Shown here: positions 3,023 through 58,930 of the stretch, piece by piece
Layout of the letters: the number at the start of each line of letters is the position of its first letter
Numbering within the stretch: position 1 is the stretch's first letter
Source of the DNA: an uncultured virus (IMG/VR IMGVR_UViG_3300011785_000001)
Taxonomy: Duplodnaviria > Heunggongvirae > Uroviricota > Caudoviricetes
Virus record (IMG/VR): IMGVR_UViG_3300011785_000001
Location: 1 to 64,000 of that record
Strand: one strand, 5' to 3'
DNA length: 64,000 nt
Notes under the pieces: model-generated
The model's database searches: none
Seen by the model: the letters and a program-made list of their open reading frames with translations, nothing else
Told to the model about the DNA's origin: nothing
Translations under genes and position numbers: made by a program

Positions 3023-3569
3023 TTACATCCACCTTAATATCTGGGTTATTTCCTAAATCTAAATCCCCTGTAGTTTGAACACGATTAATATGTCCAATAG
3101 GGAAGTCTTCCATTCTTGTTGTTAAAATTGTCAAAGAGATTGTGTCATTGACGAATGCAGTATTACCATTAATGTTCAAGTTAATACGAGGGATTGCTTG
3201 GTAATCCATAAAACCCATACCATACTTATCTAACACTTCTTGACCAAAATCACTGTCTAAAGCAATTGCTAAATAATCGCACCACTCCTCACTTTTACTC
3301 TTGGCTTCACCCTCAAAAGTGATTGTGTAAGTAACAAGGTAATCAACTAAAACTGTCTGCCAACCATTGCCGTTGACATCAACTTTTGTTTTATGTGTTC
3401 TCTGAACAGACTGCTTATTTCTATTTAAAATACTGACAACACAGTAAGGATTCTTTGGAGGGCTACCAGCTCTACCAGCTAAAATGAATGTACAATCAGG
3501 AATAATCTCTTGTAACGCCCTTATAATATTCTTTTCATTGTCAGCGACAATTGGTGTCGTGATTGACAT
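3009..3569 (-). CDS. Putative tail terminator/neck protein
   Basis: Size and position between head-closure gene and sheath; PY-hydrophobic motif near N-term. Confidence 0.55.
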   Translation of the reverse strand: MSITTPIVADNEKNIIRALQEIIPDCTFILAGRAGSPPKNPYCVVSILNRNKQSVQRTHKTKVDVNGNGWQTVLVDYLVTYTITFEGEAKSKSEEWCDYLAIALDSDFGQEVLDKYGMGFMDYQAIPRINLNINGNTAFVNDTISLTILTTRMEDFPIGHINRVQTTGDLDLGNNPDIKVDVNGNG

Positions 3570-9904: not shown

Positions 9905-11422
9905 TTATCCTATAAGGGCTAAGTTAAGTTTTTTATACTCTTTAGTTGTTGCTAAGACGTTGAAAGAATCAGATGTTCCGTCACACTGATCGTCATGATA
10001 GCGTCTACTTACACCATCAAATCTTTCTAACTCTGTAAAGTAGTCATCGTTCCAAACACCTTTAACAACTGAAACAATACCGTTTTCACAAGCTGCTGAG
10101 AAAGGGAGGAAGCGTACAAGTTTTCCACTCTTAGTGTTAGGTTTCATAAACTTGACAGGTAGACCAGCATTCGCAAACTCTTTAGCTCGTTGATGCTTGA
10201 TACTTTTACCAGCTTCACCGGGATCGGTTGGTAGATATGTCATTACGCTACCAAACTGTTTGTTGTCTTGCTTTGAGATTTTTATGATCTCATCAACAAC
10301 TTCACCTTCGCGTTTTCTAAATCTAACAACATCTTCGACAATGAATCTTCCATCTTTTGTCTTAGCTATTAACACCCCTGCTGTGTAATCGGGGTCTGGG
10401 TAAGCTTCGGATGGTATAGAACATGCCATATCCCAACAACGAACTCGTCTAACAACCTTTGATAGATAGGACATATCTTCTGGGATATGTGGATTTAACT
10501 GTGTAATCCACGATTTCTTAAAGTAACCACTCTCTTCCTCAGAAGCATACCAGTTACCTTTTAGTAATCTCTCCATTGTAACACGAGGTTGTGATGCCAA
10601 TTGAGCAACATAGTCTGGGTTCTTCTTAATCGCTTCTGGGTTGTCGAAACAATTAGCTCCAATGAAAACAAAGGATTTAGGCTTACAAAGGTTTTCACCA
10701 GTGATAGGGTTTGTTCCGAACTTAGTGTGATATTTATCATACAACTCTTCAAACGAGCTACCCCATTTAAGGTCATTACCTACACGTAAATAGTATCGAA
10801 CAACACCGTTCACATCTTCGTTAGGTCTACCTTCTACAAGCTCATCATCAATGTATGTTCCTTCTGGGTGAATGTAGAAATCATTAATCCACTTGAGAAT
10901 GTAAGACGATGGATCAGGGTTGCATGTTAACCAAATACAAGGTTTCATTCTAGCGTTAGTACGAAGACGAGAAACAATCCACCAAATATCTTCCTCGATA
11001 AAGTGAGTTGCTTCATCACACATTGCTGCTGAAATCTCAATACCTTGAATGGCATCTCGACCAGCCTTATCATCCATACCTAAGAATGAAACAGATGCTC
11101 CACTAGGGAATCGAATCACCATAGGTTGTTGTGTGTATGTTGTACCCTTTCTGAATGCTTGGAAAATCTTAACAGCAGTCCAGAATGCACCACCTTCTTT
11201 CTTCAAGTCAGTCGCATGTAAACGAAACACATAGCCTACAAAGTCTGGGTCATCACACCATTTTAAGAATTTTAATAATCCAGTGTAACTCTTCCCACTC
11301 ATTGCAGCTCCACCATATACAGTGAAGAAAGCATCAGTATTTAAGAAGAGTGCTTGCTTATAACTTGTAGCACCAAACTTGGGTTTTTCAACAACTTGTT
11401 TTCTTTGTTGTGTTCTTGCCAA
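9905..11422 (-). CDS. terL: Terminase large subunit
   Basis: Walker A GGAAMSGKS, Walker B CDEATHF, LTCNP coupling motif, nuclease WDMA..DYTAG..HDDQCDG. Confidence 0.95.
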   Translation of the reverse strand: MARTQQRKQVVEKPKFGATSYKQALFLNTDAFFTVYGGAAMSGKSYTGLLKFLKWCDDPDFVGYVFRLHATDLKKEGGAFWTAVKIFQAFRKGTTYTQQPMVIRFPSGASVSFLGMDDKAGRDAIQGIEISAAMCDEATHFIEEDIWWIVSRLRTNARMKPCIWLTCNPDPSSYILKWINDFYIHPEGTYIDDELVEGRPNEDVNGVVRYYLRVGNDLKWGSSFEELYDKYHTKFGTNPITGENLCKPKSFVFIGANCFDNPEAIKKNPDYVAQLASQPRVTMERLLKGNWYASEEESGYFKKSWITQLNPHIPEDMSYLSKVVRRVRCWDMACSIPSEAYPDPDYTAGVLIAKTKDGRFIVEDVVRFRKREGEVVDEIIKISKQDNKQFGSVMTYLPTDPGEAGKSIKHQRAKEFANAGLPVKFMKPNTKSGKLVRFLPFSAACENGIVSVVKGVWNDDYFTELERFDGVSRRYHDDQCDGTSDSFNVLATTKEYKKLNLALIG

Positions 11423-11937: not shown

Positions 11938-12303
11938 CTAAAAGAACACATGTTGTCCTATCTTAACTTTTAAAGTCCTGTTGAATCTCACCCCGATTTT
12001 AGCGTGGTTGAAGTAAAGGCTTCCTTTTGTGTAATTCGTTTTATTTGTATAAAAATTCCGAGCTACTTTAACGCTCTCATCCCAAGCTTCTTTTTCATAC
12101 TTAGGAGGTTTCAAAGAATTAGAACCTTTATACCAAGAAAACTGACCTTTCTGTTTAACTACACCACAATATGTATTAGGGTAGTCAGGGTGCTTACTAC
12201 GATTATGTACAACTTCTGCTATCGAGTATTGAGCCTTTATTGGTTCAGACCTTCCCTCTCGAAAAATCGTCATTGCTAAACATAATATACTTTCACTAAT
12301 CAA
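11938..12303 (-). CDS. Cell wall hydrolase (SleB/Hydrolase_2 family)
   Basis: CLAMTIFREGRSE, VVHNR, YPNTYCGVVKQKGQFSW, IGQHVF; probable TTG start at 12303 after GAGG. Confidence 0.9.
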   Translation of the reverse strand: MISESILCLAMTIFREGRSEPIKAQYSIAEVVHNRSKHPDYPNTYCGVVKQKGQFSWYKGSNSLKPPKYEKEAWDESVKVARNFYTNKTNYTKGSLYFNHAKIGVRFNRTLKVKIGQHVFF

Positions 12304-12420
12304 AACACTTATCCTCTTTATGTAAACATGATAGTCTACAGGAAAGTGTTCAATTCGTAAACCATCGTTGTGACAACATCCCCTGTCACCAATCGTATCC
12401 ATTCTAGTAAAGTGTACCGA

Positions 12421-12675
12421 TCAATAGATCGTACTCTTAAACACCAACATGTCCAAAACCTCTTTAGAGAAACCTACATGTCTCTCAACCTCTATTCCTT
12501 GAGATTCTAAACAGATTGTTGGAACATTCTTGACTTTGTTGTTCTTCCATTCTTCTGGAGATTCATCAACATCAACAACCAAATATTTCATGTAAGGGTA
12601 ATACTTATCAAGATACTTAATTGTTTGAATACAAGGATTACACCAATGAGAAACATATATCTTCATTTCAAACAC
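12421..12675 (-). CDS. Thioredoxin-like protein
   Basis: WCNPC motif, VDVDE, VPT. Confidence 0.85.
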   Translation of the reverse strand: MFEMKIYVSHWCNPCIQTIKYLDKYYPYMKYLVVDVDESPEEWKNNKVKNVPTICLESQGIEVERHVGFSKEVLDMLVFKSTIY

Positions 12676-12719
12676 TGTAATGTCCTTGTAGAGTAAATAA
12701 GCCCTAAATCGAGAGAAGA

Positions 12720-13715
12720 ACCTTTACTGTGGTGTGAGGTATCTCATCGTTTTCCTACCACATACTTTCTTACCAATGGGACTTAAACTAGGAATAAAAA
12801 CACAACACTCACAACACAGGAGAATCGTACACTGACTTACCTTTATAATCATTATTTAAGGTTTATTTTATTCGATGTGTGTACTATGTGTGAGGTTGCT
12901 AGGAGTAACTGGGACAGCTTCACCGACTGCTGTGCATAACCTCTGTGGTTATTTGCGGTCAGACTTTACGATCTTCTGAATCTTACCTAAACGGTTAACT
13001 TCTAAACTTACCTTACGGCTACTGATCGTCACTTCTGATAGTGTCTTTTATGGAGATTTCTCTCAGTGTATTTGTTTTTAGTCTTTCCTAAATGTCATAC
13101 CTTTACTTGTAATAGCTCCAGAACGTAAAAAAGTACCGTAAGGTATTACTATTCTCTGAACACTTTTCAAAACGATAAAGCTCGTCTTTAATAGCTGTAG
13201 TCGACTTACAGATCAGAACAGGAGATAAACCCTGTGAGTTGATTCCACTAGAACACACTAAGAGTGGGAAGTGTATCTCAACGCTAGAATAAGAAAATAT
13301 AGTCAGTCTTTCCTGAAAGTCAGCTTACCTATTGCGAATCCAATCACGTTATGGAGGGATAGGTCGAAAATGATTCTCATCAATATCGTTTAAAAGCAAC
13401 ACCTCCGTCAGTACGTGACAACCGATAGAGGGTTTTCAAACATTACCTAAATTACAACACGTTGCAACTAAGATTAGTAATGTATTTTTTCAGTCCACAT
13501 TTAAAGTAGCGGAACACTCACAATCCAAGCAGAGAATCAATTCTTGTGCAAGGTTGCTAATGACCTAATGGTAACTGCTGCTTACCCTATGTTATTCCAC
13601 TCTTATCGTGATGCCACACAGTTCGGCTGACACAGACTCAATTTATGTTTAAACTCAGCTTGAGCTAATTAGCGGAGTACCTGATTCAGAACGTCAATTT
13701 GATAAGCCCTGAATC
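12720..13715 (-). ncRNA. Candidate structured non-coding RNA(s), about 1 kb, downstream of the tRNAs
   Basis: No ORF of 60 aa or more; many nested helices readable by eye with G-U pairs on the minus strand; two copies of a UGAC-N2-stem-GAAAGA motif with a compensatory change. Confidence 0.6.
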
Positions 13716-13722
13716 TTGTTCT

Positions 13723-13821
13723 TTAAAATAAGAAAATGTAGTAAGGATAAATAGAGTAAAACAATACTGAGGCAATTAAAACCCAGACGATTACTTTCTC
13801 CCAAGTTGTTAATGTTCTCAT
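13723..13821 (-). CDS. Small hydrophobic peptide (32 aa)
   Basis: MRTLTTWEKVIVWVLIASVLFYSIYPYYIFLF*, one TM-like stretch, AGAGAG upstream. Confidence 0.5.
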   Translation of the reverse strand: MRTLTTWEKVIVWVLIASVLFYSIYPYYIFLF

Positions 13822-13852
13822 GTTATCTCTCTAAATTTATAATCACATTAAT

Positions 13853-13998
13853 CATAACATCACTGGAGAATCGAACTCCAATATTCGTAGTATTTTACAT
13901 GTAGGTGATCAGTCTAACGCCATAGTATCTTCATCTGGAGCTACCATTTTACTTTAACTATGAACTACGCCCATCTGCAACCTGAGCATGATGTTATG
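13853..13998 (-). ncRNA. tRNA-like RNA of about 145 nt with expanded anticodon arm, no encoded CCA
   Basis: CATAACATCA/TGATGTTATG closing stem, D-arm GCTCA..TGGGC, GTAGT/ACTAC stem enclosing about 70 nt, T-arm TGGAG-TTCGATT-CTCCA. Confidence 0.65.
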
Positions 13999-14025
13999 TC
14001 AATATAATTAAATATTTTATTAAAT

Positions 14026-14109
14026 TGGCAGAGGGTAAAGGAATCGAACCCTTATCCGTTAGAATAGCACGTGGTTCAAGCCCGCTTTGTCACCTTGACG
14101 CTACCCTCT
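14026..14109 (-). tRNA. tRNA-Ser (anticodon TGA)
   Basis: AGAGGGT..ACCCTCT-G-CCA acceptor, loop CTTGAAC, long variable arm, GGTTCGATTCC T-arm; one mismatch in the anticodon stem. Confidence 0.85.
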
Positions 14110-14112
14110 GTT

Positions 14113-14199
14113 TGGCGGAAAGCAATGTAATCGAAACATATACCCCTAAGATACACACTGTTTAGCAAACAGGTCTAGCTCCTCGCTAGTTTACTTTCC
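14113..14199 (-). tRNA. tRNA-Ser (anticodon GCT)
   Basis: GGAAAGT..GCTTTCC-G-CCA acceptor, CTGT-TTGCTAA-ACAG anticodon arm, long variable arm, TTCGATT T-loop. Confidence 0.9.
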
Positions 14200-14308
14200 T
14201 TAATTGCCACTTCACGTAGTAGCCACGTTATCCCATGTGGAAGTTAATCTCATGACAGGGAGTAATTGTTTATCTATTGCGACAGTGTTTGTCGTCTTGA
14301 TGTGAGTA

Positions 14309-14337
14309 ACTATACATGAGGTTGATCTCCCCGTCAA
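14309..14337 (-). promoter_or_regulatory. sigma70-type promoter for the tRNA/ncRNA cluster
   Basis: TTGACG-17 nt-TATAGT. Confidence 0.75.
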
Positions 14338-14390
14338 CTAATTTATTGTTACAAATTGTAAACAAGATTGATACTTAATTTAATTTTTTA

Positions 14391-16010
14391 TTAAATTATA
14401 AATGTATAACACATTCTTTTGTTAATACCCTCCGATATTTTAAGCATTATTAGCTCTTGAAGAACATCTGTTGGTATTAAATCTTCATCAATATCACTCC
14501 AATCAAAGTCCTCACAATAGATTCTATGAACACTGTGGATTTTGGTAATCTTATTGAAGTTAGAACGATACTTAGGTTTTATTTCTTTGTATTGTTTCTT
14601 AACTCCTGAAACTATTTCACAATATTTTACATCTACATATTCTCTTTTCATTCTAACAACCACCTTTCCTTTGTAATTAAATCAACACTAATCATATCTT
14701 TAACACATGATCGCACCAATAAATCTTCATCCTTGTGTTGTACACCCATTAGAGAATCTTCTAACACCATAAATTCAAACTCTACAGTGTAGTCAACTTC
14801 TAATTGCAACAATTTATCTAAGTTGTATTTATCAATCATTTGACTTCCTCTGAATCATATAACTTATCAGCATACTCTTGCAACGTACCATTAGTGTACT
14901 CATGAGTGATCAGTATATTGCCATCACTATTAGTGCAAAATAACACACCATCCTTCCAGAAATATGCTTTAAAGTTATCACCATCTTGCTCTACATGAAA
15001 CAAGTAGTAATCACCTTTAACTAATTCTGATACATCCTTAGTCATAAATTCATCATCAATTATTTCATTGATATTTTCATCAAATATAACATTCATTACC
15101 ACACCTTCTGCAATTCTAAAACTTTATACGGTAAACCTAAACTCTTCAGTAACTTAACACCACTCACACAAGGTTTATCTGGGTTATCATGACAACCCCA
15201 AGTTAACCCTTCTAAAGCTCTCATCTTAATGATTTGATAAGGGTCTGGCAGACAGCCATAGTTCTGAGAAATTTCTGTTGTTTCATTACCAAAGTTAATA
15301 GGGCAACCTTCACCCTTACAATCTCCTTGAGTACAATCTAAATCTAACATACTCCAGAATGACTCTTTAGATAACCTGTGTTTTAAGTAATCTTCTGAAA
15401 CAACATCTACATTCAAAACATCAATCTTTTTCATTCCACAACTCCTTTATTCAATAATAACACAAATGCCATCATACCATGCCTCTTTTATCTCATGTAT
15501 ATCATTCGCATAATCGCAATCATAAGTGTAAACTTCAACATCTCCATGTTTTGCTTTATGTTCTTCAAGAAGCTCTACTAATTCACTAATCTTCATATTA
15601 AACCTCCTTTATTAACCTGTGGAACATGTCTTTGGCAAAATTGTAGTTGTGTTCAAAGTATGGATTACACTTATTATCACTACAATAGTCAGCAATAAAA
15701 AACCAACATAGACTGTTGTGTCTTTCATTTAAGTAATCTTCTTGTGCTTGTAATACTCTTTTAAAACCGTATCTGTTGATTAAATCTACGGTAGTTACAT
15801 TGTGTTTGAATTTCACTATTAACTCCTACTTAGTATATTCCATGTATGTTTGCACTAAACAAAACACAAAGAATATAGCATACACAACACCAATAATAAT
15901 AGCTGATGTTAAATCTACACTAACAACATTGTTCTTTAGCAATACAAACAGAACAAACCCTGTTAACAACAGTAGCACATCAACAAACAAATAAAAATAT
16001 AAAAACATTA
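14391..16010 (-). CDS. Run of small hypothetical ORFs (14391-14663, 14648-14839, 14836-15102, 15096-15434, 15598-15816, membrane ORF ending 15826)
   Basis: Tightly packed or overlapping ORFs with AGGAG-type RBS; 15096-15434 is Cys-rich. Confidence 0.6.
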
Positions 16011-58176: not shown

Positions 58177-58930
58177 TCACTTCTTCCCTTTTAAAACTTT
58201 AACAATATTACTAATCAAATCAATAGCTCCAAATACAACAGTCTTCATAACCCAGAAGAATAGCTGCCACAAGTGAACTACAGGAGCAATGATAGCTGCA
58301 ATCAAATTAAAAATCAAATGATATTTTAAATAATCTTTAATAACTTCTGAATCTGCAATTTCTTTTAGCTGCTCTGGATGATTCTTCACAGTATCATTTA
58401 AAATATAAAACCAGAACCCACTATACAACAACCACAACATACCAATAATATAAATCATATTTATCCTTTTAAAATAAGAAAAGGGTGCTGTTAACACCCT
58501 GTATAATAAATGACGAACAACGCGAGGAATGTTATTATACCCCTTTATACAACCCCCACGTCTCTGTAGACATCATTCCCGTGTCGTACCAGCCCTTATC
58601 AATACGTTCTGCACCAATGTACCTATCCATCCGTACAACCTCACCAGTGAGCTTAGAACGATGCGTACAGTGATGTGCTGAGTACCAATGGAAGATTTTA
58701 TTACCCTCATCATCATAGTTTTCAAACATTACTACATCTTTATCAAAACCGAAGTATGTATGTAGAATATACTCTAACAACTCAATACTATCTTTACGGA
58801 AAGGTAGATCACCTTTAGGTAAGAGCTTACCTTCTTTTTCTAACTCATTAGCAATCATCATCACATCATGTAAACTTGCCACAGCATCGAAGTATTTACG
58901 AAACCCTTTGTATTTACCATTATTGCTCAT
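58177..58930 (-). CDS. Membrane ORF (ending 58177) and hypothetical ORF 58535-58930
   Basis: Hydrophobic stretches; MSNNGKY start overlaps the upstream stop. Confidence 0.55.

Follow-up and report, generated by a model that had tools for sequence, protein, structure and literature searches.

Large structured RNAs such as GOLLD and ROOL are associated with phages, are often found near transfer RNA (tRNA) genes, and have no known function. They are the subject of a preprint based on cryogenic electron microscopy (10.1101/2024.12.08.627333). Stable RNAs that are not tRNAs have been known from phage tRNA clusters since T4, and none has a known role. In T4, the small RNAs RNAC and RNAD follow tRNA-Arg, and two sources describe their roles as unknown (PMC3014915; PMC9697503). 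A survey published in 2023 proposed 8,495 candidate structured RNAs from IMG/VR; these are motifs of 29-151 bases predicted by covariation in the intergenic regions of phages, and some resemble tRNAs (PMC10690425). Here we describe a tRNA-bearing locus of an uncultured Acinetobacter myophage with a genome of 95,415 bases. We analyzed positions 1 to 64,000 of its IMG/VR record (IMGVR_UViG_3300011785_000001), hereafter the window. On the minus strand, a stretch of about 1.7 kb (12676-14390) contains only open reading frames (ORFs) of 51 amino acids or fewer and lies between a 90-amino-acid ORF (14391-14663) and a thioredoxin-like gene. An earlier reading of the sequence alone, hereafter the original prediction, had described this stretch as a non-coding transcription unit with two tRNA-Ser genes, a tRNA-like RNA, and about 1 kb of almost continuous pairing.

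One module of the stretch (13290-13437), read from the minus strand, forms a conserved RNA fold. The stretch around it is a mosaic and not one unit, with modules that are swapped between phages at fixed borders. We read the whole as an exchangeable accessory island of small RNA genes plus one tiny protein gene, in which the RNAs would be stable products processed from a tRNA operon; we give this reading a probability of about 0.58. Like RNAC and RNAD, the motif is a small, presumably stable non-tRNA RNA that is encoded among phage tRNA genes and on their strand, and the analogy to T4 drawn in the original prediction fits by position. By our own reading, RNAC also ends in a T-arm-like part, as does a tRNA-like element in the window. 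The two systems differ in host and phage family, and the motif forms a three-way junction that is not tRNA-like. A covariance model of the motif (R1), run with filters off on T4 positions 69000-74000, reached at most 5.8 bits, at a site other than RNAC and RNAD, neither of which it matched; a T4 model was not run against the window. Literature searches found no published description of the motif. Words taken from it had no match in the six searchable supplement files of the 2023 survey, files 1, 2, and 4 being outside the search (PMC10690425). The motif would be a second, unrelated example of such an RNA, with a well-defined fold. Because it occurs in cultured, tractable phages (BS46 and Ab3-TPeters) whose close relatives without it serve as natural controls, the role of such RNAs is directly testable.

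The motif stood out by its conservation: block 13305-13434 was 92-93% identical in Ab3-TPeters and BS46, above the neighboring terminase gene, and its edges were sharp. Further copies were gathered by short exact-word scans of IMG/VR and metagenomes. After one identical and one truncated copy were dropped, the alignment held 22 distinct sequences. Helices were read from this alignment and then counted, and a junction helix was added after the minimum-energy fold of the window's own sequence had shown it. In the first version of the structure, 93.2% of cells were paired and both sides had changed in 11 of 29 pairs. The final structure had standard pairs in 95.0% of 726 cells, compared with 27-38% when the 3′ partners were slid by 1-3 columns, and both sides had changed in 13 of 33 pairs. 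RNAalifold, given no structure, recovered helices P1 to P5, and the window's own minimum-energy fold contained these helices plus the junction helix. The covarying pairs include the CCTCT/GGAGG stem (13402-13431) that the original prediction had listed. On R1, the window motif scored 131.5 bits over model positions 1-147, with two unpaired cells at the base of P5.

The architecture is compact. At the 5′ end, hairpin P1 carries the invariant loop UGUCACGU; next in order, 3 of the 22 sequences have an optional UUCG hairpin of 15-17 bases. A 4-bp helix then closes the three-way junction, which encloses a GNRA hairpin and the P3-P4 arm with its invariant loop UAACGUGAU; hairpin P2 is capped by GAAA, GUGA, or GAGA. 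In the junction helix, one pair is AU in 15 sequences, GC in 4, and GU in 1, and another is UA in 21 and CG in 1. The 3′ end consists of the word UGAC followed by hairpin P5, whose loop is GGAAAGAC. As read from the alignment, the P1 loop contains UCACGU and the P4 loop its six-base complement ACGUGA, both invariant, and we propose that the two loops may form a loop-loop (kissing) contact.

G-U pairs, which would be A-C on the opposite strand, occupy 79 of the 726 cells. The fold therefore belongs to the minus strand, that of the tRNAs, and the predicted strand preference of G-U pairs holds in the one motif where it is testable. Opposite-strand ORFs over the motif use differing frames in two phage groups and are by-products of conservation; the motif is not coding. 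The same data bear on the idea that the conserved blocks act as DNA, for instance as sites of recombination or protein binding marking the borders of cassettes. Such a role would account for borders that fall on the same bases in different phages, for 3′ hairpins that end exactly at the borders 13287-13294 and 13065, and for the many conserved stretches that never vary. However, the pairing is strand-specific by the G-U count, GNRA and UUCG tetraloops are features of RNA, the compensatory changes preserve helices and not sequence, and the motif is always oriented as the tRNAs are. We consider a role as DNA very unlikely.

A divergent second copy lies in the adjoining cassette. Copies of the P5 pattern were located by script, and what the second copy clearly has in common with the motif is UGAC, the P5 hairpin, and a UUUU(G)AAA junction; the invariant loops of the motif are missing from it. 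Its UGAC-plus-hairpin unit has the loop AGGAAAGACT in DNA letters, or AGGAAAGACU in RNA. The unit occurs in these two places only in the genome, while a third occurrence of the word, judged by eye, has no hairpin. In a metagenome contig 90% identical to 12905-13287, two pairs of the 3′ hairpin of the second copy are replaced, U-A by G-C (13092/13077) and U-A by C-G (13090/13079). The 51-amino-acid ORF over the second copy shows no third-position bias, its 15 listed changes being spread 5, 4, and 6 over the three codon positions. In phage Herod, R1 gives two weak matches in tandem ahead of the 11 tRNAs at its locus. We take the second copy tentatively as a weaker paralogue of the motif. Because of this copy and the tandem matches in Herod, the "array" of RNAs in the original prediction is supported in a modest sense.

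The mosaic was evident from two closer IMG/VR relatives, L007 and L008, which share some blocks of the stretch at 85-100% identity and lack others. Block 13674-14028 is present in L008 only, block 13302-13568 in L007 only, and block 12908-13302 in neither; the rod-like hairpin at 12792-12908 is in both. Contigs from a DNA metagenome run show joints at 12908-12911, 13065, 13287-13294, 13515-13518, 13563-13568, 13678-13680, 13839-13840, 14024-14028, and 14198-14205, and sampled words of the stretch were present at no more than 0.22 in any sequencing run. Among these contigs, some excise the module between 13563-13567 and 13678-13680. A 31-base piece of the cassette at 12911-13065 recurs in MD-2021a. 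Immediately upstream of the motif, block 13515-13569 is 93% identical in MD-2021a and 80% in Ab3-TPeters. The small hairpin of this variable part (13438-13568) reads CCGC/GCGG, CCGC/GTGG, or CCAC/GTGG among relatives, as judged by eye, and the inserted CATTAC/GTAATG hairpin was found in the window, Ab3-TPeters, and L007 only. The fixed borders suggest that RNA genes in general, and not tRNA genes alone, are exchanged at tRNA islands.

These observations can be set against the possibility, raised in the original prediction, of a single large, ornate RNA like GOLLD or ROOL that would span the whole stretch. The stretch is indeed long, lies beside tRNAs, has no large ORFs, and contains many small hairpins with GNRA loops. 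Yet its modules come, go, or change order independently of one another in L007, L008, Ab3-TPeters, BS46, and metagenome contigs, and a protein gene sits in the middle. GOLLD and ROOL measure 500 bases or more, whereas the motif unit is about 150 bases long with independent neighboring modules. Neither family matched at E ≤ 10 in 12300-14800 or at gathering scores in the window. More broadly, no family of Rfam 15 matched the motif, either in the window or at five loci with homologues, where only tRNAs and chance-level matches were returned, and no family explained the locus at gathering scores or at E ≤ 10. Nor was there excess folding: in 120-base windows on the minus strand, the mean z score of folding energy was -0.47 inside the stretch (n = 25) and -0.60 in flanking genes (n = 34), and z ≤ -2 was reached by 2 of 25 windows inside and 5 of 34 outside. 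The almost continuous pairing described earlier was thus not borne out, and most of the stems listed with it were indistinguishable from chance, their folding energies not beating those of shuffled sequences. These results contradict a single large RNA, in our estimation the least probable of the readings considered here. Of the proposal of one large or several processed RNAs, what stood is a structured RNA outside known Rfam families, with strong covariation at 13290-13437 and weaker support for the second copy. Overall, the original observation was partly confirmed and its interpretation partly supported.

The setting of the locus is that of a variable tRNA island. A BLAST search of a phage collection assigned the region to a group of Acinetobacter myophages of about 95-105 kb. 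In BS46, Ab3-TPeters, TaPaz, Ab5, and MD-2021a, a gap of 400 to 1,583 bases lies directly ahead of the endolysin and terminase genes and contains zero to three tRNAs (ARAGORN default settings), and a Saclayvirus has eight tRNAs at the corresponding locus (ARAGORN). Since relatives hold tRNAs in the same gap, we identify the stretch with the variable tRNA locus of this phage family.

In the window itself, ARAGORN called no tRNA at default settings and Rfam gave no match at gathering scores. One of the two predicted tRNA-Ser genes nonetheless appears credible from its sequence. tRNA-Ser(UGA) scores 27.1 bits on the Rfam tRNA-Sec model, below the gathering cutoff of 47, and is 94% identical to a tRNA-Ser in L033 that ARAGORN calls by default, 87% identical to its counterpart in Ab3-TPeters, and 78% identical to the tRNA-Ser(UGA) of Aci05 and Herod. 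The second gene, tRNA-Ser(GCU), is doubtful: it has no Rfam tRNA match at E ≤ 10 and no homologue in the phage collection, it is absent from L007 and L008, and the ARAGORN -ps80 setting that calls it is unspecific, with 47 calls genome-wide. Drawn at -ps80, both form a cloverleaf with a 7-bp acceptor stem, a T arm, a 7-base anticodon loop, a long variable arm, and CCA; in tRNA-Ser(UGA) the D stem is weak and the anticodon stem has one G-A. A single 170-base metagenome contig spans both genes, the pair is missing in L007, and tRNA-Thr takes its place in L008. The A+T-rich spacer that follows is present as a single copy in the window, with no repeat and no promoter call in the scan.

Further along, the predicted tRNA-like RNA has a perfect acceptor-like stem and a standard T arm. 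The element is 92% conserved in L008, where three stem changes all remain paired as wobble when judged by eye. Its folding z score of -0.30 is no better than that of shuffled sequences, and a search for further homologues found none beyond the known relatives. These features weakly support a tRNA-like nature.

A stretch with faint tRNAs might be mostly the wreck of a former tRNA array, and the original prediction had listed decayed tRNAs among the outcomes that would refute it. Relatives hold up to 11 tRNAs at such loci, and the tRNAs of the window fall below the usual thresholds. Herod has, at about 2085-2160 of its locus (L044), an apparent tRNA-Tyr remnant that resembles the tRNA-Tyr of BS46 by eye through the anticodon arm and has lost the T arm; decay of tRNAs thus does take place at such sites. 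However, 40 distinct tRNAs from the fetched loci matched only tRNA-Ser(UGA) (E = 3e-28) and otherwise T loops, over 11-14 bases at E > 0.01, and in no profile search did the modules align significantly to a tRNA cloverleaf. The motif, for its part, is far better conserved than a wreck and covaries in a shape that is not a cloverleaf. We therefore regard decay as highly improbable as an account of the stretch.

Other tRNA-related elements were seen in the relatives and elsewhere in the genome. In phages of the BS46 group, a tRNA-like element with an acceptor stem, a T arm, an encoded CCA, and a 9-base anticodon-like loop (GACUAGUUA) stands just before the endolysin start (L006, about 2736-2823 and 3363-3450; L002, about 3200-3290; L001, about 3400-3485); neither ARAGORN nor Rfam called it. 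MD-2021a has two copies, whose differing anticodon-like stems both pair (TAAGT/ACTTA and CAAAC/GTTTG). The only tRNAs that ARAGORN calls by default in the genome of the window are a tRNA-Met and a tRNA-Arg(UCU) at a second locus outside the window and 52 kb away (G000 C1, 66478-66628).

The absence of long ORFs agrees with the original description of a non-coding unit, but one short gene is conserved. Among codons that differ, the counts of synonymous and nonsynonymous changes are 6 and 2 in L008, 4 and 3 in L007, and 2 and 8 in the distant Ab3-TPeters. It is a genuine gene for a membrane protein. The GATTCAG/CTGAATC stem that follows it was correctly noted as a hairpin, but it shows no variation among the four phages that keep it; it has no T run.

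The predicted near-consensus promoter was upheld, with the equally strong site TTGACA-17-TATGAT at the aligned position in L007, and may well be active. The scan of 12400-14700 as a whole was not enriched, with 12 sites against 8.8 ± 2.8 expected. For the leader block (z = -0.79), a search for further homologues turned up L007 and L008 alone, with no sequence variation for covariation. At the other end, the rod named in the original prediction (there 12803-12898) is a conserved element, but its folding is not exceptional (z = -1.57; 17 of 200 shuffles folded equally well). It is probably a terminator. Beyond it, the counterparts of the next gene's leader in L027 and L020 sit between the motif and the next ORF.

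From this arrangement, a single promoter at 14337 would drive a long transcript, which would carry, in order, the leader, tRNA-Ser(UGA) and the doubtful tRNA-Ser(GCU), the tRNA-like element, the message for the 32-amino-acid membrane protein, and the two related folded RNAs, and would end near 12800, at the long hairpin and its U run. The precursor would then be cut by the tRNA-trimming enzymes of the host, leaving the folded pieces as stable small RNAs comparable to RNAC and RNAD of the T4 tRNA region. We infer co-transcription, processing, and stability, and likewise action in trans and any target.

Within the leader, a 13-codon ORF (14233-14274, minus strand) lies in the invariant block. 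Its product resembles the start of the 32-amino-acid protein encoded 400 bases downstream (MRLTSTWDNV versus MRTLTTWEKV), a likeness that may be chance or a remnant. In addition, GC (guanine-cytosine) skew and gene strand both flip near window position 16000, and this point of divergent transcription is about 1.7 kb upstream of the promoter of the locus.

The distribution of the motif is narrow. In the phage collection, matches to it or its flanks were restricted to Acinetobacter phages, and no copy turned up when 185,579 bacterial and archaeal genomes were scanned by pattern. Aci05, Ab5, and the 96%-complete relative behind L008 likewise had no match, so the motif RNA is accessory or dispensable. 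tRNAs lie upstream on the same strand in 7 of the 22 motif loci by ARAGORN, many loci being too short to judge, and Rfam adds a downstream tRNA in two. In TaPaz, a weak R1 match (L048, record positions 58185-58283; 19.5 bits) is located far from the tRNA locus.

This context also admits a reading in which the motif is not a free RNA but acts in cis, leading the late genes downstream as, for instance, an element for antitermination or ligand sensing. The motif always points toward the next gene, which is an endolysin in BS46, Ab3-TPeters, and MD-2021a and a same-strand zinc-ribbon gene in 17 of the 22 loci. Its three-way junction, complementary loops, and 3′ hairpin are features that many riboswitch aptamers have as well, and some members have U-rich tails after P5. 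On the other hand, the downstream gene differs between phage groups, being thioredoxin-like in the window. The distance to the zinc-ribbon or other next gene ranges from about 130 to over 1,000 bases, and the intervening sequence sometimes includes tRNAs or endonuclease-like ORFs; in the window, the motif is separated from the next gene by 620 bases that include two further cassettes and the terminator-like rod. Moreover, P5 is short, at 5-6 pairs, and no U-rich tail follows it in BS46, L012, or L021. We favor stable processed RNAs over a cis-acting leader, which we hold to be unlikely although it is the strongest competitor. The zinc-ribbon protein itself is conserved, at about 75 amino acids with two CxxC pairs (loci L014, L012, L020, and L025-L038).

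Several points weigh against an island of stable, processed RNAs. The recurrent zinc-ribbon neighbor fits a role in cis equally well. P4 and the two proposed kissing loops never vary and hence lack covariation. In the alignment, 15 of 22 rows form one tight cluster, the effective sequence number of the model is 1.54, and the compensatory changes perhaps reflect about six lineages. None of 500 column shuffles reached the covariation score of the motif, but this control ignores relatedness and its result is not a probability. Folding energy is unremarkable for the motif (z = -1.22), as it is for the region. The score of the second copy is low and comes mostly from the 3′ hairpin, and in the contig described above five adjacent changes (13177-13181) break two of five P1 pairs when the second copy is aligned to the model. 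The terminator scan gave no call at the rod, which we attribute to its long loop. Finally, RNA-library runs (X15 and X20) include assembled contigs that partly cover the leader, the tRNA-like element, 13565-13677, and the motif. These may derive from DNA and lack ends, strand, and levels, and they permit no conclusion on expression.

A bolder version of the preferred reading, which we think quite unlikely, gives the RNAs a purpose of their own. The motif and its divergent copies would be a family of exchangeable RNA cassettes with an end hairpin bearing the GGAAAGAC loop, passed between Acinetobacter phages together with tRNAs. The junction core, locked by the 6-bp loop contact, would bind a host factor or small molecule. 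The RNA would then serve in counter-defense or host takeover, for example by acting as a decoy that diverts a tRNA-attacking enzyme of the host, and would not be a by-product of processing. Mimicry of clustered regularly interspaced short palindromic repeats (CRISPR) was considered and rejected, the sole weak match to a CRISPR direct repeat falling in a coding region (12482-12507). Likenesses of short conserved words to the RNAs of the ribosome and RNase P and to group II intron domain V were dropped as chance, in view of the lack of an Rfam match.

Table 1. Features of the stretch and of the genes downstream, in window coordinates.
Feature	Position	Strand	Remarks
Sigma-70-type promoter TTGACG-17-TATAGT	14309-14337	-	10/12; top promoter-like site in 12400-14700
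Leader block ahead of first tRNA	14199-14272	-	74 bases identical in L007 and L008, flanks differing
tRNA-Ser(GCU), encoded CCA	14113-14199	-	ARAGORN -ps80 only
tRNA-Ser(UGA), encoded CCA	14026-14109	-	ARAGORN -ps90, not default
A+T-rich spacer ending TTGACA	13991-14025	-	Also found at module borders in L007 and L008; both orientations occur in L008
tRNA-like element: 7-bp acceptor-like stem plus T arm enclosing a long insert; lacks CCA	13856-13995	-	Read from sequence
Gene for 32-amino-acid hydrophobic protein	13723-13821	-	Frame open and of equal length in 4/4 phages
Hairpin GATTCAG/CTGAATC	13683-13715	-	Directly after stop codon of 32-amino-acid gene; stem kept in 4/4 phages, invariant
Module of undefined nature	13565-13680	-	96.6% identical in L007
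Variable 5′ part upstream of motif	13438-13568	-	50-base common block, hairpin CCGC.../...GTGG, inserted hairpin CATTAC/GTAATG
Core of structured RNA motif, about 150 bases	13290-13437	-	22 distinct homologues, covariation
Divergent second copy	13065-13237 (cassette 13066-13287)	-	R1 23.4 bits over full model, rough E-value
Separate cassette with several small GNRA-type hairpins	12911-13065	-	One metagenome contig joins 12919-13065 straight to 13563
Long imperfect hairpin (rod), then TGTTTTTATT	12792-12908	-	97-98% identical in L007 and L008, there abutting thioredoxin-like gene
Leader part of next gene	12709-12766	-	91-93% identical to L027 337-394 and to L020; absent from L007 and L008
Thioredoxin-like gene	12421-12675	-	First gene downstream of stretch
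Cell-wall hydrolase	11938-12402	-	Downstream of stretch; Pfam
Large terminase	9905-11422	-	Downstream of stretch; Pfam

Among the neighboring genes, relatives of the upstream 90-amino-acid protein were sought in viral contigs and none was found. The large terminase of TaPaz (L004, 4217-6763) is annotated as containing an intein, and that of MD-2021a (L006, 4238-6784) is of equal length, at 848 amino acids; the terminase of the window has 505.

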